In this document: positions 2,738 through 35,586 of the stretch, piece after piece
Layout of the letters: every line of letters begins with the position of its first letter
How positions within the stretch are numbered: the first letter of the stretch is position 1
Assembly (NCBI GenBank): GCA_026985095.1
Contig: JALSQW010000018.1
Span: forward strand, 23,989-87,988
Direction: 5' to 3'
Source of the DNA: Acidimicrobiia bacterium
Lineage (GTDB): Bacteria > Actinomycetota > Acidimicrobiia > Spongiisociales > UBA5794
DNA: 64,000 bases
Notes under the pieces: generated by a model
Told to the model about the DNA's origin: nothing
Databases searched by the model: none
What the model saw: the letters and a program-made list of their open reading frames with translations, nothing else
Made by a program: the position numbers and the translations under genes

Positions 2738-3955
2738 ATGATCCGCATCGAGGCCGAACTCCTCATCCCCGGACGCGGCGAGCCCGTGACCCCGGGCACC
2801 GTGATCCTGGACGGCTCCCGGATCGTCTACGCCGGGCCTCGCAACGGCGCGCCGTCGACCCCAGGCGCCGACGTCGCGGAGGTCGCGACCGTGCTCCCCG
2901 GCCTGTGGGAATGCCACGGCCACTTCATCGGGGCCACGACCCCGGACCTCGAACGGATCGTGACGACCCCACCCGCCACGCTCGTGGCCACCGCCACCGC
3001 AGACGTGGCCGCGACGCTCACCGGCGGCGTCACCTCCGTCCGCGAGGTCGGCGGCTTCGGCATCGACATGCACCCGGCGATCGCGACCGGCACGATCCCG
3101 GGCCCCACGATCCACGGCGCCGGGGCGCTCCTGTCCACCACCGGCGGCCACGGCGACATCCACGGACTCCCCCTCGACTTCGTCCTCAGCCTCGGAGAGC
3201 GCGGGATGCGCTTCACCGAGTTGTGTGACGGCGTCCCCGAGTGTCTCCGCGCCGTCCGCCGCCAGCTCCGCCGCAACGCCAAGGTCATCAAGATCTGCGC
3301 CTCTGGCGGCGTCATGTCCGAGGTCGACCACCCGATCCACCAGCAGTTCTCGGGTGACGAGCTGCGCGCGATCGTCGCCGAAGCCCGCCGCGCCGAACGG
3401 GTCGTCGCCGCCCACTGTCACGGCAAGCCGGGGATCATGGCCGCCCTCGAAGCGGGAGTGACCACGATCGAGCACGGCTCGTACCTCGACGAGGAAGCCG
3501 CCGACCTGATGCTGGCGACCGGGGCGATCCTCGTCCCGACCCGCCTGGTCGTCGCCCAACTCCTCACGATGGAGGACACGCTTCCCCGCTACGCGTACGA
3601 GAAGGGAGTCATGATCGCCGACCGCCACGAGCAGGCGCTGAAACTGGCGATCGCCAAGGGCATCCCCATCGCCATGGGGACCGACATCTTCGTCAGCGGA
3701 CCCCTCTACGGCACCAACTCCCTCGAGATCCGCCTCCTCCAGGATGCCGGCATGACCGCGCTGGAGGCCATCGAGGCGGCCACCGCCAACGGGCCCGCGA
3801 CGCTCGGCCCCCAGGCTCCGCGTTCGGGCATCCTGGGCGAGGGCTACGACGCCGATGTCATCGCCGTCGATTTCGACCCCCTGTCGGACGCATCACCCTG
3901 GGGCGACCCCGATCGCGTGACCCACGTGTGGAAAGCCGGCGCCCGCGCCAAGTGA
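2738..3955 (+). CDS. amidohydrolase family metal-dependent hydrolase
   Basis: 405 aa with an HxH motif (WECHGHF), beta-strand/Gly-rich TIM-barrel hydrolase pattern and a C-terminal D. Codon usage is GC3-rich. Confidence 0.8.
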   Translation: MIRIEAELLIPGRGEPVTPGTVILDGSRIVYAGPRNGAPSTPGADVAEVATVLPGLWECHGHFIGATTPDLERIVTTPPATLVATATADVAATLTGGVTSVREVGGFGIDMHPAIATGTIPGPTIHGAGALLSTTGGHGDIHGLPLDFVLSLGERGMRFTELCDGVPECLRAVRRQLRRNAKVIKICASGGVMSEVDHPIHQQFSGDELRAIVAEARRAERVVAAHCHGKPGIMAALEAGVTTIEHGSYLDEEAADLMLATGAILVPTRLVVAQLLTMEDTLPRYAYEKGVMIADRHEQALKLAIAKGIPIAMGTDIFVSGPLYGTNSLEIRLLQDAGMTALEAIEAATANGPATLGPQAPRSGILGEGYDADVIAVDFDPLSDASPWGDPDRVTHVWKAGARAK

Positions 3956-3956
3956 C

Positions 3957-4086
3957 CGCCGAACCCAGGGTTCACCACACCCCTGAAGGGGGCTCCCCAA
4001 CCCAGGGTTCACCACACCCCTGAAGGGGGTTCCCGAACCCAGGGTTCACCACACCCCTCCAGGGGGCTCCCCAACCCAGGGTTGGC
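3957..4086. repeat. tandem array of about 3.3 copies of a 37-bp unit (AACCCAGGGTTCaccacaCCCCTgaAGGGGgctcc), locus A of a dispersed family
   Basis: AACCCAGGGTT starts at 3962, 3999, 4036 and 4073, an exact period of 37. Each unit contains two palindromic arm pairs, AACCC/GGGTT and CCCCT/AGGGG. The array lies between the convergent 3' ends of the amidohydrolase and the P-loop gene. Confidence 0.85.
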
Positions 4087-4114
4087 GACGCACGCAGCGC
4101 AACGCCGACCGACG

Positions 4115-4780
4115 CTAGAGCTCTCCGAATGCGAGCTGCGGCGGGTCCGGGGTGGGGGTCCGTCTCGGGCGCGCGATCCGACGTCGCGGCACCCCGTCGG
4201 CGAACAGCGGCTCACCGATCGACGCGGCCAGACGATCCGCGATCGGCCACCAGTCGAAACGATCGTCGATCGCGCTGGCGGCGATACGCACGAGCCGGGA
4301 CGCCTCGACGAGGCCCGGCAACCGGTCGTCCAGGAGGTCCTCGATCTCACGGCGGAAGGCGTCCGACGTGCTCCGCACACCGTCGGACCGCAGGTCCACG
4401 TCGGGCATCAGGCGCACGACCAGGTCGTAGGTTCCCGACCAGCGGACAACCAGAGGACCGACGTCGAACGGATCCTCTCCGCCGCAGGCCCGCAGGTAGT
4501 AGGCGAAGTTGTCCATGACGCCGCGGTCGAGGACGAGGACCTCGGCTTTGGGCGCCAGCTCCAGCTCCTGACGGATCTGGGAGACGAGCACCCACAGCTG
4601 CGCCTCGCCGGTGGCGCCTTCGTTGATCCCCAATGGGTTGTCCCGCACGACCTCACGACCGTACTCGACCGACCGCCCGGCCCGTTGCATGGCGTTCGCG
4701 AACCCATGGGCGGCGGTCGTCTTACGGATCCCGTGCGAGCCGACGAACGCCACCTTGGCGTTCCGCTGCCACCGCGCCAC
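4115..4780 (-). CDS. P-loop NTPase (AAA-domain / NadR-C-terminal-like ATPase), function unknown
   Basis: 221 aa from a GTG start 6 nt after the clpX stop. Walker-A-like VAFVGSHGIRKTT, with Arg at the second conserved Gly position, and a downstream hydrophobic stretch ending in D (VLVLDRG). Codon usage is GC3-rich. Confidence 0.6.
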   Translation of the reverse strand: MARWQRNAKVAFVGSHGIRKTTAAHGFANAMQRAGRSVEYGREVVRDNPLGINEGATGEAQLWVLVSQIRQELELAPKAEVLVLDRGVMDNFAYYLRACGGEDPFDVGPLVVRWSGTYDLVVRLMPDVDLRSDGVRSTSDAFRREIEDLLDDRLPGLVEASRLVRIAASAIDDRFDWWPIADRLAASIGEPLFADGVPRRRIARPRRTPTPDPPQLAFGEL

Positions 4781-4786
4781 GTCGGA

Positions 4787-6061
<1,275 letters not shown>

Positions 6062-6071
6062 CTGGCTCTCC

Positions 6072-6680
6072 CTACCCCGCGACGGCTTCGAGTGTACGGC
6101 CTGTCAGGACCTCGTCGATGATGCCATATTCCTTGCCTTCTTCGGCGCCCATCCAGAAGTCACGCTCGGTGTCCTGCCGGACCTTCTCGATCGGCTGGCC
6201 GGTGTGCTCGGCCAGGATCTGGTTGAGGTCCTCCCTCGTCTTGAGGATCTCCTTGGCGTGGATCTCGATATCGGACGCCTGACCCCCGAGGCCCGAGATG
6301 TGGGGCTGATGCACCATGATCCGGGAATGGGGAAGGGCGAACCGCTTGCCGGCGGCGCCTGCGGACAGGAGCACGGCCGCGGCCGACGCGGCGAGCCCCA
6401 TGCAGTAGGTGGCGACGTCGGGTTTGACGAACTGCATCGTGTCGTAGATGGCCATCAACGACGTCGTCGACCCGCCCGGCGAGTTGATGTACAGGTTGAT
6501 GTCCTTCTCGGGGTCCTCGCCCTCGAGATGGAGGAGCTGGGCCATGATGATGTTGGCGACGCCGTCGTCGATCGGCGTGCCGAGGAACACGATGCGGTCC
6601 TTCAGGAGCCTGCTGTAGATGTCGAACGCCCGCTCGCCACGGGGCGTCTGTTCGATGACCGTTGGAACCAGGTATGTCAT
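6072..6680 (-). CDS. clpP: ATP-dependent Clp protease proteolytic subunit ClpP
   Basis: ClpP core (IVFLG...NSPGGS...MAIYDTM...MVHQP). Start chosen at MTYLVPTV with a GGAGG RBS. The 40-aa N-terminal extension in the ORF track is probably spurious. Confidence 0.93.
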
Positions 6681-6681
6681 T

Positions 6682-8133
6682 TCACTCCTCGGTGGCCTCG
6701 TTGGACCCGTCGGCGTCCGGGGCATCCTCCACCCCGTCGACCGTTGCGTCGGTTTCGAGATCGGTTGTTCGTTGGGCTTGCTCGTCTTGGCCGTCATCCT
6801 CGGTGTCCTCGACCACGGGGGTCAGGTCCACCGGGTTCCCTTCCGCGTCGACGGGCGTCGCCGCCTCGACGAGTCGGTCGAGAGCCTTCCTGCGGAGGAT
6901 ATCACCGGTCAGTGCCTCTACTTGACCACCTTGTCGGATCGCCTCTTCCAATTCGTCGGCAGGTGCACCCGAAGATGCAGCGAGGAGTTTCACGGTCTCG
7001 GAGATGTCCTCGTCGGTCACCTCGATGCCTTCGACCGTCGCCACGCCCTCCAACAGCACCCGCGACGACAAGGCGGCCGCGGCTTGGGAACGAACGTCGG
7101 CCAGGAACGATTCCTGGTCCTGGTTCATCAGGTTCAGGTAGAGACCGAACGGGATCTGTTCCTGCTCGAGCCGCTGGAGCAGGTTCCGGACCCGCGCCTC
7201 GACCTCGGCCTCGACCAGCGCCTCGGGGAGCTCGATGTCGGTCTCGTCGACGAGGGACTCGACGACCTTGTCCGAGAACACCGCCCGGGCCTCGGCGACC
7301 TTGCGTGCCAGGAGCGCTCTGCGGATGGTGTCCTCGAGCTCGGAGATCGTGTCGAACTCGGTGGTGTCGGCGACGAACTCGTCGGTGAGCTCAGGCAGCT
7401 TCTTGGCCCGAACCTCCTTGACGAGGACCCGCAGCGTCACCTCCGGGTCTCGACCCTCCTCCCGGAAGCCCTCTGGGAGTTCCCCCGGCCCCTCCTTGAC
7501 GTCGCCGGCGGAGGCGCCGACGAGCAGCTCGTCGAGCCCGGGCAGGAACGATCGAGAACCGATCTCGTAGAGTAGGTCGTTGGCTTGCCCCTGCGCCAGC
7601 TCCTGACCACCCTGGAGGGTCGAGACGTTGACGAGCACGAAGTCGCCCTCGAAGGCGGGCCGATCCACCGTCTCGAGCTCCGCGAACTGGTTCCGAAGGG
7701 CGTCGATCTGCTCGGCGATCTCCTCGTCGGTCACCGTCGGGGGTTCGATCTCGACCTCACGGCCGACGAACTCGGGGACCGCATCGAGCGTGGGCCACAG
7801 GGTGATGAGCACGTCGACGTCGACGCCGCCCCCTTCTGCGTCACGCACCTCGGTCACCTTGGGGACGGTGACCGGCTCGAGGGCGGTCTCTTCGATGGCG
7901 GCGCCGATGAGCTCGGGGATGGCCTCCTCGATCGCCTCACTCCGGAGCGTCTCGGAGCCCACCATCCTCTCGACGATGGCCCGAGGGGCCTTGCCGGGTC
8001 GGAAGCCCTTGATCTTCATGCTCTTCGACAGCTTCCGCGCGGCCGCGTCCTTGGCCCGCTCGAGCTCGTCCTCGGGGACATGGACGGTCAGCGTCCGTTC
8101 GTACCGGCCGGTTTCCTTCACCTCGGTCTGCAC
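6682..8133 (-). CDS. tig: trigger factor
   Basis: Trigger-factor N-terminus (VQTEVKETG...[23 protein letters not shown]) with an acidic C-terminal tail. GTG start at 8133 has an AAGGAG RBS. The ORF-track extension to 8235 overlaps tRNA-His. Forms the tig-clpP-clpX order. Confidence 0.92.
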
Positions 8134-8190
8134 CGTGTTCGACTCCTTCGTATGACGCACCCCTCCTCGCCACGAGGGTCGGAGGGGTGT

Positions 8191-8268
8191 TGGGGTGGCC
8201 GACGGGAATCGAACCCGCGACCTCCGGGACCACAACCCGGCGCTCTAACCGACTGAGCTACGGCCACC
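8191..8268 (-). tRNA. tRNA-His (anticodon GTG), with encoded G-1
   Basis: Cloverleaf read by hand: GGTGGCCGTAGCTCAGTCGGTTAGAGCGCCGGGTTGTGGTCCCGGAGGTCGCGGGTTCGATTCCCGTCGGCCACCCCA. Confidence 0.85.
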
Positions 8269-8301
8269 ATGAACGGACGGAGGCTCCGCCTCCGTCCCGA
8301 G

Positions 8302-8374
8302 CGCCCCCGGAAGGATTCGAACCCTCGACCAAGAGCTTAGAAGGCTCCTGCTCTGTCCACTGAGCTACGGGGGC
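8302..8374 (-). tRNA. tRNA-Arg (anticodon TCT)
   Basis: GCCCCCGTAGCTCAGTGGACAGAGCAGGAGCCTTCTAAGCTCTTGGTCGAGGGTTCGAATCCTTCCGGGGGCG, with anticodon loop CTTCTAA. Confidence 0.85.
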
Positions 8375-8400
8375 ACGACGGCGGACGGACACGTCCGTCG

Positions 8401-8471
8401 AGCGGATGACGGGAATCGAACCCGCATGACCAGCTTGGAAGGCTGGGGCTCTACCATTGAGCTACATCCGC
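8401..8471 (-). tRNA. tRNA-Gly (anticodon TCC)
   Basis: GCGGATGTAGCTCAATGGTAGAGCCCCAGCCTTCCAAGCTGGTCATGCGGGTTCGATTCCCGTCATCCGCT. Confidence 0.85.
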
Positions 8472-8518
8472 CTGCGGGCCGGAGGATACCCCTGGCCGGC
8501 CCCGTTCGTCGGGCTGGC

Positions 8519-8592
8519 CGGATTCGAACCGGCGACCCCCTGCTCCCAAAGCAGGTGCGCTGCCAAACTGCGCTACAGCCCGTCGCCTCCAT
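8519..8592 (-). tRNA. tRNA-Pro (anticodon TGG)
   Basis: CGGGCTGTAGCGCAGTTTGGCAGCGCACCTGCTTTGGGAGCAGGGGGTCGCCGGTTCGAATCCGGCCAGCCCGA. Confidence 0.85.
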
Positions 8593-8672
8593 TGTCGCAG
8601 CCCGGCAGAGGTTGTCACACCCATGGCCGATCGGCTCGGGATAGGGGATCCAAGACTGGTAACCTCCCTGCC

Positions 8673-8745
8673 GGGTCGCTAGCTCAATCGGCAGAGCAGG
8701 GGCCTCTTAAGCCCAAGGTTCAGGGTTCGATTCCCTGGCGACCCA
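8673..8745 (+). tRNA. tRNA-Lys (anticodon CTT)
   Basis: GGGTCGCTAGCTCAATCGGCAGAGCAGGGGCCTCTTAAGCCCAAGGTTCAGGGTTCGATTCCCTGGCGACCCA, with anticodon loop CTCTTAA. Confidence 0.82.
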
Positions 8746-8812
8746 CCGATGAGGCCCTCGGGATCACCCGAGGGCCTCGCTCGTGCCGACACGTGCCAGA
8801 ATCTCGGTGCAC

Positions 8813-8895
8813 GCGGGCGTGGCGGAACGGGAGACGCGCCGGGTTTAGGTCCCGGTGGCCGCAAGGCCGTGGGGGTTCGAATCCCTCCGCCCGCA
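8813..8895 (+). tRNA. tRNA-Leu (anticodon TAG), class II with long variable arm
   Basis: GCGGGCGTGGCGGAACGGGAGACGCGCCGGGTTTAGGTCCCGGTGGCCGCAAGGCCGTGGGGGTTCGAATCCCTCCGCCCGCA. Resembles bacterial tRNA-Leu in overall architecture. Confidence 0.8.
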
Positions 8896-8977
8896 CCTCC
8901 GGGTCGTCCGCCTCGGGCCCTTTCGCGGAACCCGAACCGGCCGACAGGCTCGGGCGATGGAACGGACCGGAGCCCAC

Positions 8978-9196
8978 ATGCCGATGACCCCGCGTTTGCA
9001 GCAGGCCCTCGAACGGATCGAGGCGCGCCGCGTGGCGTTGGAACGTGAGATCGTGGCCGAGATCGAGGCTCGGTTCTTCGTCCTCCCCGAGCCGGAGATC
9101 GAGGACGTCACCGTCCACCTGGGTGCGCCCGACCCGACCATCGACGAGTCGTCGACCTACGGCACCTCGCCGTTCGAAACGGTCTGGTACGCCTGA
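8978..9196 (+). CDS. hypothetical small protein (72 aa)
   Basis: ATG at 8978 is in frame with the ORF-track 8855..9196 entry, whose upstream part overlaps tRNA-Leu. Codon third positions are GC-rich. No recognisable motif. Followed by a terminator hairpin. Confidence 0.45.
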   Translation: MPMTPRLQQALERIEARRVALEREIVAEIEARFFVLPEPEIEDVTVHLGAPDPTIDESSTYGTSPFETVWYA

Positions 9197-9217
9197 CGTC
9201 GACAGCCGTGCGCTCCG

Positions 9218-9245
9218 GATCCCCGACCCCTCAGGGTCGGGGATC
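9218..9245. terminator. perfect 12-bp stem / 4-nt loop hairpin (GATCCCCGACCC ctca GGGTCGGGGATC) between convergent genes
   Basis: Read directly. Lies 22 nt after the stop of the small plus-strand gene. Its right arm encodes the last four codons (DPRP*) of rdgB. Confidence 0.6.
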
Positions 9246-9833
9246 TCGGCCGTCTCCCTTCAGGAGGCGAGCCATCGCCTCGAGTGCCCGGGCCCGATGG
9301 CTGATCCGGTTCTTCTCCTCCGGCGGCATCTCCGCCAGCGTGCGCCCGTCGACGATGAACACCGGGTCGTAGCCGAAGCCCTCGGATCCCCGGGGCCGAC
9401 GGGCGATGCTCCCCTCCAGGACCCCTTCGGCGATCCGGATCGCTCCCTGCGGCTCGGCGAGCGCCACCACGGTCCTGAAACGCGCCCGACGATCGGCGAC
9501 GTCTGCGAGTTCGGCCAGGAGCTCGGCGACGTTCTCCTCGTAGGTGGCGTCGGGACCCGCGTACCGAGCCGTGCGGACGCCGGGGCGACCATCGAGCGCG
9601 GCGACCTCCAGACCCGTGTCGTCGGCGAGGGCCGCGATGCCCGTGGCGTTCGCCGCGGCGCGGGCCTTGAGGATGGCGTTGCCCTCCAGGGTCAGCTCGG
9701 TCTCGTCCACGTCGGGCCAGGTAGCGTCGCGGACGATCTCGGCCTCGACGCCGAGGCGGCGGAGGACCGCTTCGACCTCGCGGACCTTGTCCGGGTTCTT
9801 CGTCGCCACCACGAGGCGGGAGGGGATGATCAC
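9231..9833 (-). CDS. rdgB: non-canonical purine NTP pyrophosphatase (dITP/XTP pyrophosphatase, RdgB/HAM1 family)
   Basis: HAM1 motifs (VVATKNPDK...EDDTGLEV...GFGYDPVF). Its start overlaps the rph stop. Confidence 0.92.
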
Positions 9834-10534
9834 TCGCCGAGGGCCTCTCGCTGTTTGACGACGAGCTCGGCGATCCCCTTCGCTCCGAGTTCGATCAGGG
9901 CATCGAGCTGGTCGCGCGTGAAGGGTTCCCCCTCGGCGGTGCCCTGGACCTCGACGAACCGACCCGTTCCGGTCATGACGAGGTTCGCATCGACGTCGGC
10001 AGCCACGTCCTCGACGTACTCGAGATCGAGGAGCTCGGCGCCCTCGACGATCCCCACCGACACCGCGGCAACGTGATCCACGATCGGGCTTCGCTCCAGT
10101 TTCCCTTCCGCGATGCGAGCTGCGAAGGCGTCGGCGAGCGCCACCCAGGCGCCCGTGATCGCCGCAGTGCGGGTGCCGCCGTCGGCCTGGAGCACGTCAC
10201 AGTCGACTCGGGCCGTACACGGACCCATGGCGGCGAGGTCGACCGCTGCACGGAGCGCCCGGCCGATAAGCCGCTGGATCTCCTTGGTCCGTCCGCCCGA
10301 GATGGAACTCCGACGGACCCGCTCGGGGGACGATCCCGGCAGCATCGAGTACTCGGCGGTGATCCACCCCTCCTGGGTCTCGCGCATCCAGGGCGGGACG
10401 TCCTCGTCGAACGACACGGTGCACAGCACCCGGGTCCGACCCATCTTGATGAGCACCGATCCCGGCGTCATCTCGGTGTAGCCCCGCTCGATCTCGACGG
10501 GCCGCAGCTCGTCGGCGTTCCTGTCCGTCCTCAT
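9830..10534 (-). CDS. rph: ribonuclease PH
   Basis: RNase PH signature ([13 protein letters not shown]...TRVLCTVS...[18 protein letters not shown]). Confidence 0.95.
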
Positions 10535-11310
10535 GGTGCTCCCTCGTCGTCGGAATGGTCGATGCCGAACGTGGTCCCTGGCGCCGCATAGGTGGCGGAG
10601 CGGCCGAACGCGGCCTCGGCCTCGCCGAGGGACACCGCCGGGTCAAGGATCGCCCCCACGTGGGTGACGACGAGCTCGGCGACCTCCGCCGCGGCCGCGA
10701 TGGCACCCGCCTCCGACGCAGTGAGATGGTACGGGTAGGTGCCGGGGGTGCGTTCCCCTTGCAGGCTCGCTTCGCACACGAGGAGATCGGCGTCGGCGGC
10801 CAACGATGGGAGGTCGCCGCCGGGCCCCGTGTCCCCGCTGTAGACGATGGCCCCGTCGGGGGTTTCGAATCGGGTGACGAGCGCGGGCACCGGATGCACG
10901 GCATCGCCGAAGGTCAGCTCCACGTCTCCGACGACGATGCGGTCACCGGCGGTGACGGTGCGCAGATCGAGGACATGGTGGAAGACGTGCTCGGCGGTGG
11001 CGCCGGCGAACGCGGCGAGATGCTCACCGGCACCGGGAGGAACGTACACGGGCATCGGCACGATCCCCGACGGGCCGTAGGCAAGGTAGCCGTACAACCC
11101 GAACAGGTCGGTGCAATGGTCGGCGTGGACGTGGCTGATCACCACCGCATCGAGCAACCCGGGGTCGACGCGCCGGGCCAGCTCCATGAACGTACCGGTC
11201 CCGGCATCGACCCACACCGACGTCGAGGCGGCCTCCAGCAGGTAGCCCGATGCCGGGTTGGTCCGCGTCGGCGTCCCGCCGCTCGAGCCGAGGACCGTCC
11301 AGGTCGTCAT
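10531..11310 (-). CDS. MBL-fold metallo-hydrolase (Rv1339-like; possible cyclic-nucleotide phosphodiesterase)
   Basis: HVHADH metallo-beta-lactamase motif. Start chosen at [12 protein letters not shown], whose ATGA overlaps the stop of the upstream small gene. Sits upstream of rph-rdgB as in mycobacteria. Confidence 0.8.
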
Positions 11311-11576
11311 CGGGGTCCGCCGACGGCCGTCAACACGACGATCCACACCACCGCGAGGACGGTCCCGGCCAGGACCGGGAACCACGACCGCCGCGGCCAC
11401 CAGCGCACAGCGAGGGCGGCGGCGACGATCCACAGCGACACGAGCCCGACGACCCAGACGGCGGGGATGACGAGCAACGAGGCGAGGCTCAGGAGGAGAA
11501 CCATCGCCAGGAAGCCTCCGCCGATCAGCCCGAACAGGAGCCGGTACGCCTCGGGATCGTGTTCGTCGTGCGCCAT
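11307..11576 (-). CDS. small integral membrane protein (89 aa, 2-3 predicted TM helices)
   Basis: Highly hydrophobic (LLFGLIGGGFLAMVLLLSLASLLVIPAVWVVGLVSLWIVAAALAV). Tightly packed between the JAMM gene and the MBL gene, with a stop/start ATGA overlap. Confidence 0.5.
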   Translation of the reverse strand: MAHDEHDPEAYRLLFGLIGGGFLAMVLLLSLASLLVIPAVWVVGLVSLWIVAAALAVRWWPRRSWFPVLAGTVLAVVWIVVLTAVGGPR

Positions 11577-11586
11577 CGGCGGGAGG

Positions 11587-12201
11587 TTACCGGTCGACGA
11601 CGACGTCGAGCTCGCTCACCACTCCCTCGACGATGCGGTAGGCGCGGATCTCCGGGCGGGTCAGGACCTGCCCGACGATGACGTAGTACCAGGACGGGTC
11701 GAGGGCGCCGGCGACGTCGGCGGCCGACGGGTAGGCGGCGGTGCGGGGATGGGAATGGAACACCCCGGCGATCGTCCAGCCGTTGCGTGACGCGTGCTTC
11801 CAGGCCCCGTAGTGCTCCTGCGGGGCCACCGTGAAGCGACGTTCCGAAGCATCGATGTTGGTCAGCGGGTAGGCCATGACCACCCTCCCGCGGCCATCGG
11901 ATGCGAACAGGCCGCAGGCCTCCGTCGGGGCCACGAACCGGGCCTGTTGCACCATGGCCGCCGCGACCTCGTGCGGCAGACGCAAGGTCTCGATGCCCAA
12001 CGCCTCACAGGCCCGGGCGAGATCCTCGGGTCGTACGGAGAGGCGCACCCCGAAGCTCGAGAAGAAGCCGGGGTTGAGGCCGCCTTCGTCTTCGGCGACG
12101 ACGACCGAGTCGATCCCCTCCGCGCGCAGCACCGCGGCAGCGACCTCGGCATCGCCCCGCCGGGGATAGACCCGTACCGACGCCGGTGACGACTTCGCCA
12201 T
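11587..12201 (-). CDS. JAMM/MPN (Mov34) metalloprotease-family protein with about 75-aa N-terminal extra domain
   Basis: JAMM motif HSHPRTAAYPSAAD (HxHx7Sx2D) with an upstream conserved Glu region. The N-terminal roughly 75 aa (VRVYPRRGDAEVAAAVLRAEGIDSVV...) resemble a small DUF2007-like alpha/beta domain. A 4-nt gap separates it from the arcA stop. Confidence 0.8.
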   Translation of the reverse strand: MAKSSPASVRVYPRRGDAEVAAAVLRAEGIDSVVVAEDEGGLNPGFFSSFGVRLSVRPEDLARACEALGIETLRLPHEVAAAMVQQARFVAPTEACGLFASDGRGRVVMAYPLTNIDASERRFTVAPQEHYGAWKHASRNGWTIAGVFHSHPRTAAYPSAADVAGALDPSWYYVIVGQVLTRPEIRAYRIVEGVVSELDVVVDR

Positions 12202-12205
12202 GGCG

Positions 12206-13426
12206 TCAGGCGCGGAGGATGGGCTGGGTCATGCACCGGCTCCCGCCGCGACCGCGCCCGAGTTCGGAGGCGTCGAGTTCGAGCACCTTGACACCGTGAT
12301 CACGCAACCGACGGTTGGTCTCTTGGTTCCGCACATAGGCGATCACCAGTCCCGGAGAGACGGCCAGGGTGTTGTTGCCGTCGTCCCACTGCTCGCGCAT
12401 GCGGCCGATGGCGTCGCCGCCGGTGGGGATGAACACGAGGTCGTCTCGTTCGAGGGCGTCGGCCAGGACGGTCGGGAGGTCCACGCCCCGTTCCACCTGC
12501 AACGCCCGACCGTCGCCGGGGCGGATCACATGAACGACCACGTCGTGCATCAGTCCCGGGTACACGTTGAACTTGCCGTGGTCGACCATCGTGAAGACGG
12601 TGTCGAGATGCATCACGGCCCGGCTCCGCAACAGATGGACGACGATGATCCGATCGACCCGCCCTGCCGCGAACAGGTTGCGGGCGAGCATCTCGACAGC
12701 AGAGGGAGTCGTGCGCTCGCCGATGCCGACCATCACCGTGCGCTCGTCGAGGACGAGGATGTCGCCGCCTTCGATACTGGCGGGATAGCGCTCGTCGTCG
12801 CCGGTCCCGTACCACGCGGGGAACCCGACATCAGCGAAGCGGGGATGATGGTCGTAGATGGTGCGCACGAGGATCGACTCGGCCGCTCGGGCGGGGGTGG
12901 CCAGCACGCTGCGGACGAGCCCGTCGTCGATCCACGCCGCGTTGTCGCGCATGAACAGGAGGTTGGGCAGCGGGCGCAGGACGTAGTGGAACCGGTCGGC
13001 CACGAGATCGGCGAACAGCGGGTCGATGCCCCAGTCGCTCAGTTCGGACTCGAGCAGACCTCCCAGGAGCACCTCGACGACGGCTTCGGTCGGCGCCTCC
13101 GCGAGGGCCGCTCGCATGTGCTCGGCGATCCGGGGACCAACGGCGGCGGGCGTCACGATGGCGTCGACGACGTCCGACCGGATGTCGGGCACGTCGAGGC
13201 AGTCCCCCAACAGGTCCGTGAAGTAGAGCACTTCGACGCCGAGGTCGACGAGCATGCGGGTGAACCGGTCGTGCTCCTCCTGCGCGCGCTCCAACCAGAG
13301 CAGGTCGTCGAACAGGAGGGCTTCCTTGTTGTCGGGCGTGACCCGGGCGATCTCGATCCCGGGACGGTGGACCAACACCGTACGCAGCTCGGTCACCTCG
13401 GACGAGACGAACGGAGACGGGATCAT
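12206..13426 (-). CDS. arcA: arginine deiminase
   Basis: N-terminal SEVTELRTVLVHRPGIE...LLFDD and C-terminal catalytic GRGGSRCMTQPI, as in ADI. Start chosen at MIPSPF (an alternative MCIVATM lies 18 nt upstream). Confidence 0.85.
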   Translation of the reverse strand: MIPSPFVSSEVTELRTVLVHRPGIEIARVTPDNKEALLFDDLLWLERAQEEHDRFTRMLVDLGVEVLYFTDLLGDCLDVPDIRSDVVDAIVTPAAVGPRIAEHMRAALAEAPTEAVVEVLLGGLLESELSDWGIDPLFADLVADRFHYVLRPLPNLLFMRDNAAWIDDGLVRSVLATPARAAESILVRTIYDHHPRFADVGFPAWYGTGDDERYPASIEGGDILVLDERTVMVGIGERTTPSAVEMLARNLFAAGRVDRIIVVHLLRSRAVMHLDTVFTMVDHGKFNVYPGLMHDVVVHVIRPGDGRALQVERGVDLPTVLADALERDDLVFIPTGGDAIGRMREQWDDGNNTLAVSPGLVIAYVRNQETNRRLRDHGVKVLELDASELGRGRGGSRCMTQPILRA

Positions 13427-13747
13427 GGTCGCGACGATACACATCGCGACACCCTGCGGACGCGAAAGGACCCGGAGACACTTCGGCGGGTATGCCGCCG
13501 CCGTGAGGGACCAGCTCACGGATCTCCGAGTCCCGGTGGTCCGAGTTGGAGTCGCCACCTACCTCCCGGGGGGAGGAAGCGGCCAACTGCAGACATGGCC
13601 GCTTAGCGCTCGGCCACCTCCGGAGTCCTCAAAGAACTTCGATACATCTTCGGACCACCTCCTTTCTCCGTGAGCCGATTGTGCCACAAGATCGCGCGTT
13701 CCGCGACGACTTGTAGGGTGGAGCCCCACGGATCGGGAGCACAGGAC

Positions 13748-14791: not shown

Positions 14792-14792
14792 C

Positions 14793-15572: not shown

Positions 15573-15649
15573 CCGGCGGCTCAGGCGCGGCGGCGAGCCG
15601 GAGCGGAGGCCGCACGGTCTATCATCGCGCCGTCGTCTCAGGAGGTACG

Positions 15650-15973: not shown

Positions 15974-16117
15974 GAACTCCGACGCCTCAGACCACCCGCC
16001 TCATCAGCCGGTGGCACCGCGCTCGGGTCGGGACGACGGCAAAGACCGAAGGTCCCGACCGAACAGGTCGGTCGGTTCGACGGGTCCCGGCCGTCGGCGG
16101 TCCACGGCCATCTGCGG

Positions 16118-16469: not shown

Positions 16470-16601
16470 ATGCGGCCGGCGAACCCGTGGTTCGCGAGCC
16501 GGACGGAACGCCTGAGGCGTCGCACCAAGGGTAACGCCTCGGGGGCGCTGCGCGTTCCCATCGGCTGGGCGTACCGACTTGGGGCCGATAGCCTCCAGGC
16601 G

Positions 16602-17420
16602 ATGGACGACACGACCGCCTCCTCCCCTCGGCCTGCCGACGACGTGGGAGGCCGAGCCGAAGCGTCGACCGCTCCCTCCCATCCGGTCGGGCGAGGCACC
16701 CCCGCCGCCAGCCCGTCTCGACGCTCGAGCCCGATGGTGATCACCTCGGTGGTGGGCATCGTCGTCCTCGTCGCCATGCAGCTCGTCGTGCTGGTCGGTC
16801 TCAACGGCATCGACCGACGGGTCGACGACCTGTCGGGGGACGTCGCCGCCCTCGAGGCGTCGGTGTCGGAGCAGATCGCCGGGATCGAGGCCCGGGCGTC
16901 GGCCGCTCCCGATACGGCACGGCCCCCGACGGCGGCGCTGCCCGCCGGGTACCTGCCGCTGTACGACCCACAGAGCCCCGACGGTGCCCTGGGGATGCAG
17001 CTCGGACCGCTGTCGGGCCGGGAGTACTACTCGGGGACCGAGCTGACCGTCGACCCGGCCGACGGGACGCGCCGGATATGGCTGGTCTGGGCCCATTGGT
17101 GCCCGTACTGCCAGCAGGAACTGCCCGAGGTGTCCGCCTGGTACCCGACCCAGGATCTCGACGGCCTCGAGGTGGTGTCGGTCACCACGTCGATCGATCC
17201 GGACCGGGGCAACCCGCTCGAGCCGTACCTCGACGGACTGGCGCTGCCGTTCCCGGTGTTGGTCGACTCCGACCTGACGATGGCCCGTCGACTGGGCGTC
17301 TCGGCGTTCCCCTTCTGGGTCGTCACCGACGGGGACGGGACGGTGCTGCTTCGCACCGCCGGCCTCCTTCCCATCGAACAGGTCCAGGCGATCGCCGACC
17401 GGCTCGCCCAGATGCCCTGA
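16602..17420 (+). CDS. membrane-anchored TlpA/ResA-like thiol-disulfide oxidoreductase (redoxin family)
   Basis: TM helix (MVITSVVGIVVLVAMQLVVLVGL) followed by a thioredoxin fold with WAHWCPYCQ (CxxC). The ORF-track N-terminal extension overlaps ssrA and is spurious. Start at MDDTTASS is approximate. Confidence 0.7.
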   Translation: MDDTTASSPRPADDVGGRAEASTAPSHPVGRGTPAASPSRRSSPMVITSVVGIVVLVAMQLVVLVGLNGIDRRVDDLSGDVAALEASVSEQIAGIEARASAAPDTARPPTAALPAGYLPLYDPQSPDGALGMQLGPLSGREYYSGTELTVDPADGTRRIWLVWAHWCPYCQQELPEVSAWYPTQDLDGLEVVSVTTSIDPDRGNPLEPYLDGLALPFPVLVDSDLTMARRLGVSAFPFWVVTDGDGTVLLRTAGLLPIEQVQAIADRLAQMP

Positions 17421-17560
17421 CCTGCCAACCCAGGGTTCAGGAACCCCCTCCAGGGGTGTCGCCAACCCAGGGTTCAGGAACCCCCTCCAGGGGTGCCGCC
17501 AACCCAGGGTTCAGGAACCCCCTCCAGGGGTGTCGCCAACCCAGGGTTCGGGAAGTCCGG
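17421..17560. repeat. tandem array of about 4 copies of the 37-bp unit (AACCCAGGGTTCaggaaCCCCCTCCAGGGGtgtcgcc), locus B
   Basis: AACCCAGGGTT starts at 17427, 17464, 17501 and 17538, an exact period of 37. The array fills the gap between the convergent TlpA-like gene (stop 17420) and smpB (stop 17567). Confidence 0.85.
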
Positions 17561-17566: not shown

Positions 17567-18028
17567 TCAGCGGCGCCGGCGGGCACGATCCATCTCGCGG
17601 CGTTGTTGCCGCTCTACGATCGACCGGCGCTTGTCCCTCGTCCGCTTCCCCTTGGCCAAGCCCAACTCCACCTTCGCCAGGCCGTGGGTGAAGTAGATCG
17701 ACAGCGGGATCAGCGTCAACCCCTGTTCCTTCATCTTCCCGAAGAGCCGGTCGATCTCGCGTCGCCTCATCAGCAGTTTGCGGGGCCGCTCGGGGTCGTG
17801 GCCACCGTCACGGGCGAAGCCGTACGGAGCGATGTGCACGTTCTCCAACCACACCTCGCCACCGCGGATCGCGGCGTACCCGTCCTTGATCTGCACCTGT
17901 CCGGCCCGGAGCGACTTGACCTCCGAGCCGGTGAGCTGGATGCCGGCTTCGAACCGATCGAGGATCTCGTAGTCGTGCCGGGCCCGTCGGTTGGTCGCCA
18001 CGATCTTGCGTCCGGCCATGGTCGGCAA
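17567..18028 (-). CDS. smpB: SsrA-binding protein SmpB
   Basis: SmpB signature (IVATNRRARHDYEI...GSEVKSLR...YGFARDGGHDPERPRKLL). Confidence 0.95.
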   Translation of the reverse strand: MPTMAGRKIVATNRRARHDYEILDRFEAGIQLTGSEVKSLRAGQVQIKDGYAAIRGGEVWLENVHIAPYGFARDGGHDPERPRKLLMRRREIDRLFGKMKEQGLTLIPLSIYFTHGLAKVELGLAKGKRTRDKRRSIVERQQRREMDRARRRR

Positions 18029-31293: not shown

Positions 31294-33153
31294 ATGGGCA
31301 TCGACGTGTCCGCGACGAGGGAACGACAGCGACGGGCGCGGTTGGGTCGGCTGGTCGTCATCCTGACCCCGGTCGCGGCGTGGCTCTGGTACCGCATCGC
31401 CATCGGCGATCCCGTCTCTCCCGGATGGCCGACGCTGCCTGCCGACGCGGTGTTCTGGCTCCCAGGGATCCTGCTCATCGCCATGCTCGGCTTGGTCCTC
31501 GTGCTCCCGATGGTGGGCAACGGGCGATCGCCGCACACGATCTTCCTGCCCGAGCAGCTCGAGTTCGGGTTCGAAGGCGTCAAGGGCATGGCCAACACCA
31601 CCGCCGAGGTGCGCAGGACGTTGGAGGTGTTCTTGAACCACGAGAGGTTCCGCACCGAACTGGGCGGAACCCCGAGACGGGGCGTGCTGTTCGAAGGACC
31701 GCCGGGGACGGGCAAGACGCACATGGCCAAGGCGATGGCCAAGGAAGCAGGCGTGCCGTTCCTGTACGTATCGTCGACGGCGTTCCAATCGATGTGGTAC
31801 GGAGCGACGGCACGGAAGATCCGCACCTACTTCCGGGATCTGCGCAAGGTGGCGAGACGGGAAGGCGGAGCGATCGGCTTCATCGAGGAGATCGATGCGA
31901 TCGGCACTCGCAGGGGCGGGTTGGGGTTCTCGGCCATGCCGAGCACCTCGATCTTCGGGGCTCTCCGGATCGAGCCGTCGGCCATCGCCCAGGGAACCGG
32001 CGGGGTCGTCAACGAGCTCCTCATCCAGATGCAGAGCTTCGACCAGCCGAGCCGGGTCGACCGGATGCGCAACGCCGTCATCCGCTACGTGAACCGCTAC
32101 CTGCCCGAGCATCGAACGATGAAGACCCGCCCGGCGGCCTTCGCCAACGTGCTGCTGATCGGCGCCACGAACCGTGCGGACTCCCTCGACCCGGCTCTGC
32201 TCAGGCCCGGTCGGTTCGACCGGATCCTCACGTTCGACCTCCCCTCGCGGGCGGATCGCCGCGAACTCATCGACCTGTTCCTCCAGCGACGGGCTCACGC
32301 GCCGGGGCTGGATGAGGACCCGGCCAGGGACGCGCTCGCGGCGACGACGATGGGATACACACCGGCGGCACTGGAACGGCTCTTCGATGAGGCTCTGCTG
32401 GTGGCGATGCGCGACGGACGTCACCGACTGGAAGCCGCCGATGTCCGTCAGGCCCAGATGGAAGTCGAGATCGGGTTGCCGTCCCCGGTGGAGTACACCG
32501 AGGAGGATCGCCGCCGGATCGCCACCCACGAGGCGGGGCACACGACGGTCGCCTACCTGTCGGGAACCCGGAGGCTCGAGGTCCTGTCGATCATCAAGCG
32601 CAAGGAGTCCTTGGGACTGCTGGCACATCGAGACGAAGAGGAGCGCTTCACCAGGACCGAGTCGGAGATGAAGGCCCTGCTCCAGATCGCCATGGGGGGG
32701 ATGGTGGCCGAGGAGGTGTTCTTCGGCGAAGCGGGCACCGGGCCGGCGGGCGATCTGGCTGCGGCGACACGCCTGGCCGCCGATATGGTCGGGTCGTTCG
32801 GACTGGGAGGAACGTTGATCTCGTTCCGGGCGCTCGATCCGGGGATCGCGGGCGGCAACCTCGTGGCCCGGGTGCTGGCCGATCCGACGGCCCGCAAGGT
32901 CGTCGACCGACTCCTCAAGGACGCCAAACACGAAGCGACGAGGCTCCTGGCCGACCACCGGCACCTGGTCGAGGCCCTCCGCGACGCGCTGCTCGATCGA
33001 GAGGAGCTGATGGAGCGTGACATCCTGGAGGTCCTGCGGGAAGCCGAGGCACGCCGGATCGCCAAGCAGGACAACGTGCTCGTCGATCTGCGGGAACGCC
33101 CGTCACCGTCACCGGACGACCGGATCCAGATCCTGCCGCTCGACGCTCCCTGA
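31294..33153 (+). CDS. FtsH-family membrane AAA+ zinc metalloprotease (paralogue-like)
   Basis: Two N-terminal TM helices, AAA module (LFEGPPGTGKTHMAKAMA...LLIGATNRADSLDPALLRPGRFDR) and M41 peptidase HEAGH. Start at MGIDVS with an AGGGGG RBS. Confidence 0.8.
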   Translation: MGIDVSATRERQRRARLGRLVVILTPVAAWLWYRIAIGDPVSPGWPTLPADAVFWLPGILLIAMLGLVLVLPMVGNGRSPHTIFLPEQLEFGFEGVKGMANTTAEVRRTLEVFLNHERFRTELGGTPRRGVLFEGPPGTGKTHMAKAMAKEAGVPFLYVSSTAFQSMWYGATARKIRTYFRDLRKVARREGGAIGFIEEIDAIGTRRGGLGFSAMPSTSIFGALRIEPSAIAQGTGGVVNELLIQMQSFDQPSRVDRMRNAVIRYVNRYLPEHRTMKTRPAAFANVLLIGATNRADSLDPALLRPGRFDRILTFDLPSRADRRELIDLFLQRRAHAPGLDEDPARDALAATTMGYTPAALERLFDEALLVAMRDGRHRLEAADVRQAQMEVEIGLPSPVEYTEEDRRRIATHEAGHTTVAYLSGTRRLEVLSIIKRKESLGLLAHRDEEERFTRTESEMKALLQIAMGGMVAEEVFFGEAGTGPAGDLAAATRLAADMVGSFGLGGTLISFRALDPGIAGGNLVARVLADPTARKVVDRLLKDAKHEATRLLADHRHLVEALRDALLDREELMERDILEVLREAEARRIAKQDNVLVDLRERPSPSPDDRIQILPLDAP

Positions 33154-33235: not shown

Positions 33236-33333
33236 CCCCAACCCAGGGTTCGCCACACCCCTCCAGGGGGCTCACCAACCCAGGGTTCCCAATACCCCTC
33301 CAGGGGGTTCACCAACCCAGGGTTCGTCACGAT
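33236..33333. repeat. tandem array of about 2.7 copies of the 37-bp unit (AACCCAGGGTTCgccacaCCCCTCCAGGGGGctcacc), locus C
   Basis: AACCCAGGGTT starts at 33240, 33277 and 33314, a period of 37. The array lies between the convergent FtsH-like gene (stop 33153) and ahcY (stop 33338). Confidence 0.85.
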
Positions 33334-33337: not shown

Positions 33338-34585
33338 TCAGGTGCCGAGTTCCCAGGACGACAGGTAGCGGCGCTGCTCGTCGGTGAGGGACTCGAGGCC
33401 GCCACCCATCGACGCCAGCTTGATCCGAGCGACCTCCTCGTCGAGCTCCCGCGGCAAGACGTACACGTCGGGATCGAGATCGGCGCCGTGGTCCACCAGC
33501 CATTCGGCAGCCAATGCCTGATCGGCGAACGACATGTCCATCACGTCGGCGGGATGACCCTCCGCCGCCCCCAGGTTCACCAGCCGACCTTCGGCCACCA
33601 CCAGGATGCGGCGTCCATCCGGCAGCGTGTACTCGTCGAGGTTCTCGCGCAGACGACGCTTCGCGTCGGCCATGGCATCGAGCGCCACGAGATCCAGCTC
33701 GACGTCGAAGTGTCCGGCGTTGGCCAGGATCGCCCCATCCTTCATCACCGCGAAGTGCTCGGCCCTGAAGACGTGGATGTCGCCGGTGGCGGTGATGAAC
33801 ACGTCACCGACCTCGGCCGCGTCCATCGACGTCATCACCCGGTACCCCTCCATCGCCGCCGACACGGCACGGATGGGGTCCACCTCGACCACCACGACGT
33901 GGGCACCCAAACCCGAGGCCCGGCGAGCGATCCCCCAGCCGCAGTCGCCGAATCCCCCGACGACGACGGTCCTGCCGGCGAACAGGATGTTCGTGGCCCG
34001 CAAGATGCCGTCCAGGGACGATTGGCCCGTCCCGTGCCGGTTGTCGAACAGGTGCTTGGTCGGAGAGTCGTTGACCGCCACCACCGGGAACCGCAACACG
34101 CCCTGGGCCGCCATCGCCCGGAGCCGGATCACCCCCGTGGTCGTCTCCTCCATCCCCCCGAGGATCGGCAGCTCCGAGCGCTCCTTGTGCAGGACCGTCG
34201 TCGTGTCCGCGCCATCGTCGAAGACCAGATCGGGACCGGTGTCCAAGATCGCATGGATATGCCGGTAGAACGTGTCGGCATCCTCGCCGCGGCGGGCGAA
34301 CACCGGGATGCCCATCTCCACCAGCGCAGCCGCCACGTCGTCCTGGGTCGACAACGGGTTCGAAGCTGCCAGCGCCACCGAGGCTCCTCCGGCCACCAAC
34401 GTCCGCATCAGGTTCGCCGTCTCCGACGTCACGTGCATGCACGCCGCGATCTGCTTGCCGTCCAACGGCCGCTGCGCGGCGAACCGCTGCCGGATCGTCG
34501 CCAGCACCGGCATGCGCCGTTCGGCCCATTCGATCCGGCGCTCACCTTCGGCGGCGAGGGCCGGATCGGCGATGTCGTGGTTCAT
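33338..34585 (-). CDS. ahcY: adenosylhomocysteinase
   Basis: SAHH motifs throughout (CMHVTSETANL, NAD-binding GFGDCGWG). Start at MNHDIADP overlaps the stop of the upstream gene (ATGA). Confidence 0.95.
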   Translation of the reverse strand: MNHDIADPALAAEGERRIEWAERRMPVLATIRQRFAAQRPLDGKQIAACMHVTSETANLMRTLVAGGASVALAASNPLSTQDDVAAALVEMGIPVFARRGEDADTFYRHIHAILDTGPDLVFDDGADTTTVLHKERSELPILGGMEETTTGVIRLRAMAAQGVLRFPVVAVNDSPTKHLFDNRHGTGQSSLDGILRATNILFAGRTVVVGGFGDCGWGIARRASGLGAHVVVVEVDPIRAVSAAMEGYRVMTSMDAAEVGDVFITATGDIHVFRAEHFAVMKDGAILANAGHFDVELDLVALDAMADAKRRLRENLDEYTLPDGRRILVVAEGRLVNLGAAEGHPADVMDMSFADQALAAEWLVDHGADLDPDVYVLPRELDEEVARIKLASMGGGLESLTDEQRRYLSSWELGT

Positions 34586-35586
34586 GTCGGCTCCTTCCCG
34601 AGCTGCGTCTTGAAACCCTCCAGTTCGACGACCGGCGTCGGGTCGACCCCGTCGCGTCGAGCCATCTCCACCGACATGACGTCGCCCACCACGCACAGCG
34701 AGAAGAACCTCGCCACCGCCGAGGTGCCCTCCGAGATCACGGTACCGAGGCGCTCGGCCTGGTCACGCAACACGACCTCCATCAGGTCGAGCCGGCGAGC
34801 GATCCGAGCATGGTCGTACCGGTCCCGCAGGTAGATCACGCCGGTGCAGTCCCGCAGCGCCCCCGCTTCGGCCCAGCCCTGCAGTTCGTTGTGGTTCATC
34901 TCGGGGACCTCTCCCCACCATGCTGGGCGCTTCGCGTTCTCGTTGATCTGGGTCTTGAACCGATAGGCGGCCAGCGCCGCCACCGGATGGCCCCCGTAGA
35001 CGATCGGGATACGACCCTGCGTCGCCGCGGCCAGATCCCGACCCAAAGCCGCCCCCGGCCCGTCCCCGGCCCCGAGCAGGTCGGTGACGACGTCGGCCGC
35101 CTCCTCCAGCACCGCCGTGGGTTGCTCGATATAGCCGTCCCCTGCCAGCGCGGCGACGGTCGCCGCCGCCTGGTAGCCCAACGCGGCCCGAGGCTGCAAG
35201 CCACCGGGAACCTCGACATGCGGGAACGCCTCGTTGGCGGCGATGGTCGCCAGGGTCCCACCCGAGGTCACCGCCACCACCGGGAGACGCAGCTCCAGTG
35301 CCTCCTCGACACCCGACAGCGTCTCTTCGGTGTTGCCCGAGTACGACACAGCCACGATCAGCGCCCCTGCCGGCCCGGCCCACGCCGGCAGCCCGTAGCT
35401 CCGGTGGGTCGTCACCACCGAACCGGATCCCTCGGCTTCCAGGGCAGCGACGGCCGCAGCCATCCCCGACCCGCCCATGCCGAGCAGAACCACCGGACGA
35501 CCCGTCGGCGGCGCCGGGGCCGCCAGGCCGGCACCCCATCGAAGCTGCTGGGGGATCTCTAGGATTCGCTCGAACATCGTCGTCAT
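34582..35586 (-). CDS. bifunctional phosphoglucose/phosphomannose isomerase (SIS domain; manA-like)
   Basis: SIS motif (VVLLGMGGSGMAA...AVSYSGNTEET) and a C-terminal PGI/PMI region. Start at MTTMFERI overlaps the Trm112 stop. Confidence 0.8.
   Translation of the reverse strand: MTTMFERILEIPQQLRWGAGLAAPAPPTGRPVVLLGMGGSGMAAAVAALEAEGSGSVVTTHRSYGLPAWAGPAGALIVAVSYSGNTEETLSGVEEALELRLPVVAVTSGGTLATIAANEAFPHVEVPGGLQPRAALGYQAAATVAALAGDGYIEQPTAVLEEAADVVTDLLGAGDGPGAALGRDLAAATQGRIPIVYGGHPVAALAAYRFKTQINENAKRPAWWGEVPEMNHNELQGWAEAGALRDCTGVIYLRDRYDHARIARRLDLMEVVLRDQAERLGTVISEGTSAVARFFSLCVVGDVMSVEMARRDGVDPTPVVELEGFKTQLGKEPT

Follow-up and report, generated by a model that had tools for sequence, protein, structure and literature searches.

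Introduction

Short extragenic palindromes of the repetitive extragenic palindrome (REP) type are common among bacteria. To our knowledge, the pairing of REPINs with the REP-associated tyrosine transposases (RAYTs) is the only case in which a REP-like family has been linked to the enzyme that maintains it. Among the described nucleases, the homing endonuclease I-Bth0305I, which has a Vsr-like catalytic domain, acts as a homodimer on a 14-bp pseudopalindromic core target and covers a footprint of about 60 bp (PMC3239194). In this study, we analysed 64,000 nucleotides of genomic DNA from a member of the Acidimicrobiia (GenBank assembly GCA_026985095.1, contig JALSQW010000018.1, positions 23,989 to 87,988), hereafter called the window. 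A preliminary description of this DNA had pointed to three arrays of a 37-bp tandem repeat, each unit carrying two short palindromes, which we call the A box and the B box. We find that elements built on the A box occur across the Acidimicrobiia and bracket the gene of a protein with an AbiEi-like and a Vsr-like, putatively nucleolytic domain. We propose, with a probability of roughly 60%, that the arrays in the window are gene-less derivatives of the ends of this nuclease cassette, expanded by slippage and belonging to an Acidimicrobiia-wide palindromic family.

Results

Three arrays with a common unit

Tandem Repeats Finder and motif counts against shuffled sequences confirmed the period-37 arrays at all three loci. 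The program reported 3.3 copies with 92% matches at 3962-4083, 3.5 copies with 96% matches at 17424-17554 and 2.5 copies with 85% matches at 33238-33330. The A box, AACCCAGGGTT, has 11 exact occurrences in the window, all 11 of them within the three arrays; with one mismatch allowed, shuffled sequences gave a mean of 0.45 matches and none of 100 shuffles reached the observed count. Likewise, the eight exact occurrences of the B box, CCCCTNNAGGGG, are confined to the arrays. The unit has a symmetric layout (A box of 11 nt, spacer of 7 nt, B box of 12 nt, spacer of 7 nt), and every array in the window follows the formula (A-7-B-7)n-A, in which n full units are followed by a terminal A box.

Array 1 (3962..4083) is composed of the units 3962-3998, 3999-4035 and 4036-4072 and a terminal A box at 4073-4083. 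Array 2 (17427..17548) has the units 17427-17463, 17464-17500 and 17501-17537 and ends with the box at 17538-17548, and array 3 (33240..33324) has the two units 33240-33276 and 33277-33313 and the terminal box 33314-33324. The arrays contain four, four and three A boxes, respectively, and all lie in the same orientation (+ strand). The unit type of array 1 is AACCCAGGGTT-CACCACA-CCCCT(GA/CC)AGGGG-GCTCCCC and the subtype of array 2 is AACCCAGGGTT-CAGGAAC-CCCCTCCAGGGG-TGTCGCC. Differences between the loci had been thought to be restricted to the spacers; the loop of the B box varies between arrays as well. The arrays are not CRISPRs, as already stated in the preliminary description, since the units abut and the 26 nt between A boxes recur within and between arrays. 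A separate short tandem repeat at 33152-33199, with two copies of GACGGACCCGTCGAGC overlapping 2.5 copies of ACCCGTCGAGC, begins at the stop codon of an FtsH-like gene and precedes array 3; its sequence is unrelated to the 37-nt units.

A family of A-box elements in the Acidimicrobiia

The exact pattern of the 37-nt unit had no match in 185,579 species-representative genomes. In the JGI metagenomes it was found at 18 loci on 11 contigs, all from the single sample Ga0256841. These contigs carry 22 further arrays of two to five boxes each and have no overlap with the window beyond the repeats themselves; for this organism, at least 25 arrays are present in about 0.83 Mb. Because the exact unit was lineage-restricted and unmatched in the species genomes, a looser pattern of two A boxes with a gap of 24-28 nt was adopted, which retrieved at least 109 loci in at least 42 assemblies. 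All listed matches belong to Acidimicrobiia or to generically labelled Actinomycetota. The repeat is therefore genome-specific, as first supposed, with regard to the exact 37-nt unit only; the A-box family to which it belongs occurs across the class.

The basic element of this family consists of the 11-bp palindromic box AACCCWGGGTT (A), about 25 nt containing a hairpin (X), and a second box. In other Acidimicrobiia the usual form is AACCCAGGGTT, about 25 nt and AACCCTGGGTT. Of 142 pairs of adjacent boxes, 114 have a period of 36, 19 one of 35 and five one of 37; arrays range from 85 to 159 bp in length, and the period corresponds to 3.5 helical turns. By the central bases of the two boxes, 69 doublets are of the (A..T) and 10 of the (T..A) type, and 63 pairs with the same centre are direct tandem repeats. 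The middle hairpin X has a lineage-variable sequence, often NNNAGCGTCGCTSAGCGACGCTNNN. Across 66 doublets, 188 cells of the X stem were changed on both sides, as compared to 98 ± 10 in shuffled alignments (none of 500 shuffles was as high), and the covariation score collapsed when the partner columns were slid by one to three positions. In the aligned sequences, the central hairpin is thus supported by compensatory changes.

These findings support the view that the repeats form a dispersed family of the kind of REPs, bacterial interspersed mosaic elements (BIMEs) or MITEs (miniature inverted-repeat transposable elements). The impression that they match nothing described was borne out too. Rfam gave no credible family at gathering thresholds, nor for array 1 at E <= 10; a full-text literature search with the 11-mers returned eukaryotic primers only, so that no paper turned up in which bacteria carry the motif; and searches of the literature on Acidimicrobiia and REP, on DUF559 and on AbiEi/Vsr-like proteins with inverted repeats retrieved no description of such a system.

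A nuclease-like gene bracketed by the repeats

When the genes lying between two element clusters were searched with Pfam, one protein came up in each of four genomes, four times in all. It has about 305-310 amino acids, with a winged-helix domain of the AbiEi_4 type at its N-terminus and a Vsr-like domain (MTES_1575/DUF559) at its C-terminus. A jackhmmer search of every open reading frame (ORF) in about 1.06 Mb found exactly five homologues, and A-box elements lie at most 55 nt from the ends of all five. Among complete genes, elements on both sides were found for three of the four nuclease homologues and for two of 782 other genes (Fisher p = 5e-7). Since these first loci had been chosen by their repeats, the flank test was redone from the protein side. 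Seven distinct homologues (45-74% identity), picked by protein similarity alone, were all flanked by inverted copies of an A-X-A' element.

The cassette has the layout [A - X - A'rev], gene, [A'fwd - X - A], in which the inner box A' (RGCCCACRGWW) faces the gene. Its terminal inverted repeats measure 42-60 nt and are 73-93% complementary. The ends of the cassettes carry the unit type of the solitary arrays of the same lineage: this was seen in the genome of the window organism (L015), in a sister species (L138 as compared to L130/L131), and in L143 and L147. At the sequence level, these comparisons demonstrate a tight association of the A-box elements with the nuclease-like gene and their identity to its inverted ends. 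Moreover, some arrays contain A'rev-short spacer-A'fwd junctions, which look like cassettes minus the gene, as expected for gene-less derivatives. The bias of the doublets towards (A..T) matches the polarity expected when the outer ends of two cassettes meet head to head.

In one of the seven homologues picked by protein similarity (L140, sample Ga0256839), the variant box GAGCCCWGGGCTC replaces AACCCWGGGTT, together with the hairpin GACCACCG..CGGTGGTC. The variant boxes lie at 2384-2430 and 3443-3538 of this locus; positions 2 and 10 are changed jointly, and the palindrome is kept. A more distant case was found in Tsukamurella tyrosinosolvens, where a DUF559 gene (L148, NZ_LR134454.1, 121815-122850) encodes a protein about 30% identical to that of the Acidimicrobiia. 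It is flanked by a different palindrome of 42 nt, 93% complementary, which shares the CGCTCAGCG centre with the hairpins of the Acidimicrobiia; about five copies are present among the Tsukamurella records of a plasmid collection. As the single full-length case from the plasmid search, it supports, by its flanking sequences, the generality of the arrangement. Dozens of homologues lie on contigs that, at 1.0-1.3 kb, hardly exceed the gene in length, an indication that short-read assemblies are routinely interrupted by the repeats beside it.

The surroundings of individual cassettes show several further features. At L149 (5553-5960), two minus-strand tRNA genes lie between direct A-X-A' copies immediately upstream of the nuclease-like gene. 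At L139 (2301-3110), from the sister species, a gene for an rve-family (DDE) integrase follows directly downstream of the cassette, and the nuclease-like protein of this locus recurs on another contig in a different context. At L094 (3780-3845, viewed on the - strand), three 19-nt tandem units of CAACCCTGGCCCGTCTGG(C), each with a half-degenerate A box, abut a normal A-X-A' copy upstream of the nuclease-like gene.

The protein encoded by the cassette

The AlphaFold model of the protein has a mean pLDDT of 91.3. With Foldseek, residues 1-200 matched the AbiEi antitoxin 6Y8Q (E = 2e-5), and the last approximately 100 residues matched the catalytic domain of I-Bth0305I (3R3P) with TM scores of 0.80-0.82 and root-mean-square deviations of 2.7-3.1 Å; the C-terminal domain also matched the DUF559 protein 3HRL. 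By sequence, 3R3P was the sole and weak match in the PDB (E = 0.78). All 27 homologues in a profile share the residues D233, E244, D246, H251 and D260. Pfam, NCBIfam and the fold search found AbiEi-like and Vsr-like domains only and no recognised transposase, and NCBIfam gave no useful name. The family is very large, with 4,812 clusters at 50% identity (E <= 1e-30). No AbiEii (DUF1814) neighbour was found beside 12 homologues, whose neighbours are unrelated housekeeping genes, and the literature searches retrieved no paper tying a repeat family to proteins of the DUF559 or AbiEi type.

Turnover between strains and sister species

Copy numbers derive from short-read assemblies throughout. At the smpB junction, which carries array 2, the window has four A boxes as compared to two in L128, which comes from a second assembly of this organism and in which SmpB and the flanking DNA are both 100% identical; a third contig of the organism terminates within this array. 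The loci L008 and L010 of Ga0256841 have common flanks and carry four and two boxes, respectively. The copy numbers in the window may hence reflect strain variation or an effect of short-read assembly.

Between species, the arrays stay in place and the units change. In JALXFP01 (L130/L131), whose SmpB is 97% identical, an array occupies the same smpB junction at the same distance between terminal box and redoxin stop codon as in the window, and it consists of 36-nt units with a GCCCTGTGRGGGC centre. Seven further arrays are orthologous with the sister species JALVQZ01, with flanks 77-90% identical and end boxes co-located. The tandem period is 37 nt in 67 of 67 cases in this genome as against 36 nt in 23 of 23 in the sister species. 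Slippage can produce the homogeneity within an array; the genome-wide agreement of dispersed arrays needs exchange between loci or repeated re-seeding. More distant relatives, with 83-84% SmpB identity, have the smpB junction without the element. The nuclease-like protein itself is 74% identical between L015 (2320-3243) and L138 (2501-3439) from the sister-species sample, as compared to 97% for SmpB and 77-90% for the flanks of the arrays; the evolution of this partner protein seems rapid and to run parallel to the shift from units of 36 nt to units of 37 nt.

Position of the arrays and their neighbouring genes

Gene maps other than those provided by the tools were made with a self-trained caller based on codon usage, in which stops are exact and starts approximate. 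Within predicted genes lie none of 25 element clusters of this organism (coding density 0.91) and five of 124 clusters in other genomes (0.85), and the stop codon closest to an element is, in the median, 13.5 nt away, so that the arrays are indeed extragenic and situated at gene 3' ends. Their placement at convergent junctions had been taken as a rule. This is true of the three arrays in the window and does not extend to the genome, in which seven convergent, nine tandem and one divergent context were found. Convergent contexts are enriched nonetheless, at 7/17 (41%) against a baseline of 16% in this genome and 27/104 (26%) against 14% elsewhere. The orientation of arrays was judged from the spacer sequence, the position of the B box being uninformative because of the symmetric unit; relative to the upstream gene in tandem contexts, five were sense and three antisense, so orientation is not fixed.

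The genes flanking the arrays had been named correctly, as Pfam identified amidohydrolase(+)/AAA_28 P-loop(-), redoxin(+)/SmpB(-) and FtsH-like(+)/AdoHcyase(-) pairs. The amidohydrolase gene (2738..3955, +) has its stop codon 6 nt upstream of array 1, and that of the AAA_28 P-loop gene (4115..4780, -) lies 31 nt past it. Array 2 begins 6 nt after the stop codon of a thioredoxin-fold redoxin gene (16734..17420, +) and is followed after 18 nt by that of smpB (17567..18028, -), whose database protein P0001 has 150 amino acids and is three codons shorter than the ORF in the window. At array 3, the stop codon of the gene for an FtsH-like AAA/M41 protease (31294..33153, +) lies 86 nt upstream and that of the S-adenosylhomocysteine hydrolase gene (33338..34696, -) 13 nt past the array. 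The redoxin gene was taken as approximately 16734-17420, because the longer ORF 16290-17420 overlaps a tmRNA gene (16116-16469, -; tag peptide AEDNFALAA). In the window, the oppositely oriented redoxin gene separates the tmRNA gene from smpB; relatives with 83% SmpB identity are without the redoxin gene, and ssrA comes immediately after smpB. Elsewhere in the window, six divergently arranged tRNA genes lie at 8191-8897 (- strand: His, Arg, Gly, Pro; + strand: Lys, Leu).

Discussion

Origin and spread of the arrays

The arrays of the window probably descend from the ends of the nuclease cassette. An A-X-A element has the box twice in direct orientation, at a distance of 36-37 bp, and replication slippage or unequal exchange between these boxes would yield (A-X)n-A arrays. 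Such an origin fits the fact that arrays always end in a full box at both sides and vary in copy number. We infer that the encoded protein would bind the palindromic box as a dimer and nick or cut there. Units may then spread and become homogenised across loci, either by a homing-like repair that draws on other copies or by transposition in trans, from which it would follow that every array carries the unit type of its own genome, even at loci held in common with a sister species. Elements would survive beside stop codons, often between convergent genes, as these are the only harmless insertion sites in a genome that is 91% coding, and an influence on the ends of transcripts, if there is one, would be a side effect.

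A broader proposition is that AbiEi-like/Vsr-like nuclease genes, together with the repeats derived from their own inverted ends, constitute an unrecognised self-propagating repeat system in the Actinomycetota. We put this forward tentatively, at somewhat below even odds. Such a system would be an analogue of RAYT-REPIN operating with a PD-(D/E)xK nuclease, in which cutting at the box and repair from other copies install a species-specific unit at conserved loci.

Several points weigh against a mobile nuclease cassette as the source of the arrays. The Pfam scores of the nuclease domain are weak (25-27 bits for MTES_1575 at a cut-off of 38; about 21 for DUF559 at 20.6), and the assignment of the nuclease fold depends mainly on predicted structure. 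Proteins of the AbiEi type are known to recognise inverted repeats within the promoters of their own genes (PMC7319586), and the repeat copy upstream may serve as an operator. That the A box looks invariant across loci is in part due to the search pattern. Gene neighbourhoods of the cassette are conserved within clades, e.g. proC|gene|macro or sigma70-CBS|gene|DUF87, and differ between clades; the gene may be passed on vertically and have lost its mobility. In six cassettes, the sequences beyond the inverted repeats showed no target-site duplication. No cassette site was found whose filled and empty states could be compared cleanly; such a pair was looked for at the window junction 55177|55184, where relatives have elements or cassettes beside orthologues of either gene, but with different neighbours. 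Finally, the jackhmmer search over ORFs detected no copy of the nuclease-like gene in the window.

Alternative explanations

The arrays might instead be bidirectional terminators or mRNA-stabilising hairpins that the host keeps at the 3' ends of convergent genes, as the preliminary description had suggested. Their closeness to stop codons and their enrichment at convergent junctions agree with this, and arrays 1 and 2 are predicted to adopt on either strand, as the fold of lowest energy, a single long interrupted hairpin, in which A1 pairs with A4, B1 with B3 and A2 with A3, and B2 forms the tip. The string of small hairpins envisaged earlier is not what is predicted, since the A box, AACCC-A-GGGTT, cannot fold alone because its loop would be 1 nt. 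Folding z-scores for the two strands were -4.3/-3.9 for array 1, -2.3/-2.8 for array 2 and -0.8/-1.4 for array 3; arrays 1 and 2 are more stable than shuffled sequences on both strands, and array 3 is no better. None of the three arrays has a T-run after its units, and a terminator scan of 3000-19000 flagged neither array 1 nor array 2. Among 43 doublets in tandem context, sense-strand mismatches comprised 41 G·U and 46 A·C pairs; without an excess of G·U over A·C, selection on RNA alone was rejected. Moreover, only three of the eight convergent junctions in the window bear arrays, the other five having stop codons 6-35 nt apart, and in one of the relatives lacking the element at the smpB/redoxin junction the stop codons are 1 nt apart. 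Terminators do not need a class-wide 11-bp box or a unit that is identical genome-wide. We consider a primary role of this kind unlikely.

Equally improbable, in our estimate, are arrays of binding sites for a host protein on double-stranded DNA, comparable to BIMEs with gyrase or integration host factor, which might for example absorb supercoiling between convergent units. A perfect, odd-centred palindrome that does not fold on itself would suit a dimeric protein binding double-stranded DNA, and the fixed period of 3.5 turns, the convergent enrichment and the lack of strand asymmetry are in line with it. Against such a host function, both presence and copy number vary at orthologous junctions and most convergent junctions are free of arrays. 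The only protein linked to the box by context is the AbiEi/Vsr-like one, which points to a selfish or self-regulating system and away from a housekeeping protein. A secondary role as terminator, stabiliser or host DNA-binding site could exist beside a cassette origin; it explains neither the shared sequence, nor the turnover, nor the flanked gene.

A classical REP/REPIN family copied by a Y1/HUH tyrosine transposase is a very remote prospect. Short, multi-copy extragenic palindromes in inverted doublets and clusters, inherited within a lineage and with one flanked gene, would be typical of it. The elements lack a 5' motif of the GTAG type, though, and the flanked gene encodes a PD-(D/E)xK Vsr-like protein and not an HUH enzyme. 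The RAYT partner that had been suggested was not found: phmmer detected no Y1-like ORF in about 1 Mb, a weak test, made with IS200 TnpA and YafM queries. That the arrays are chance repeats or assembly artefacts, as might be suspected of a metagenome-assembled window whose copy numbers differ between assemblies, is refuted for their existence, since the same units occur in 22 arrays on 11 other contigs and in independent ENA and Logan assemblies, related units occur in dozens of genomes and the motif count is far above that of shuffles; the exact copy numbers alone are uncertain.

Implications

If the nuclease cassette is the source of the repeats, a second and unrelated pairing of a repeat family with an enzyme is indicated, in a poorly studied and mostly uncultured class. 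A testable role would be gained for the very large "DUF559 / AbiEi-domain" family, members of which are now annotated as antitoxin or hypothetical, with AACCCWGGGTT as a concrete candidate target of 11 bp. With units of 37 nt in one sister species and of 36 nt in the other, at loci that the two have in common, the dispersed arrays offer a natural case of concerted evolution. A practical nuisance would find its explanation as well: short-read contigs of Acidimicrobiia end in these repeats, and the nuclease-like gene is often left alone on contigs of about 1 kb.

Comparison with known systems

Mycobacterial interspersed repetitive units and variable number tandem repeats (MIRU/VNTR) are likewise intergenic actinobacterial tandem repeats of tens of bp whose copy number varies between strains. 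MIRUs, in contrast, measure 40-100 bp, lie inside operons, overlap small ORFs and have neither palindromic boxes nor a flanked nuclease gene.

AbiEi antitoxins of type IV toxin-antitoxin systems resemble the cassette protein in its N-terminal 200 residues, which match Pfam AbiEi_4 and 6Y8Q, and in the binding of inverted repeats by AbiEi. They differ in that no AbiEii toxin gene is adjacent here, the C-terminus is a predicted nuclease domain, and the repeats, instead of being confined to the promoter, flank the gene on either side and recur at numerous further loci. With I-Bth0305I, an "EDxHD" enzyme, the predicted Vsr-like domain superposes at a TM score of about 0.8 with the catalytic residues kept; both have a separate DNA-binding part, and the footprint of about 60 bp is comparable to the end repeats of 48-60 bp found here. 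I-Bth0305I lies in a group I intron of a phage and acts on a single target, and the similarity in sequence is marginal (E = 0.78), whereas the gene described here stands free in chromosomes between inverted repeats, and tens of repeat copies without a gene occur along with it.

The BIME-2 elements of E. coli, tandem Y-s-Z2-l REP arrays, share with the A-box arrays two alternating palindromes joined by fixed linkers (7 nt in the window), a location at the ends of transcription units and a variable copy number. The BIME motifs are inverted copies of one REP, whereas A and B are distinct palindromes in direct repeat. As in MITEs, the sequence of the solitary elements is that of the terminal inverted repeats of a coding cassette in the same genome, and the A'rev-short spacer-A'fwd junctions resemble internally deleted cassettes. 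Unlike MITEs, the elements are about 47 nt long, far below the typical size, no target-site duplication was seen and the protein is not a recognised transposase.

REP/REPIN-RAYT systems are close in their organisation: multi-copy extragenic palindromes occur singly, as inverted doublets or in clusters near gene 3' ends, with genome-specific "master" sequences, persistence in a lineage and one gene flanked on both sides by repeats. They differ in their parts. The GTAG 5' motif is absent from the consensus of the 66 doublets and of the 67 units, which start with AACCCWGGGTT; an 11-bp self-palindromic box stands at both ends of a variable hairpin and forms direct arrays with a period of 35-37 bp; and in place of an HUH/Y1 transposase there is an AbiEi-like winged-helix protein with a predicted Vsr-like PD-(D/E)xK nuclease domain. 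The A-box family would thus function like REP/RAYT and MITE systems and yet belongs to neither.

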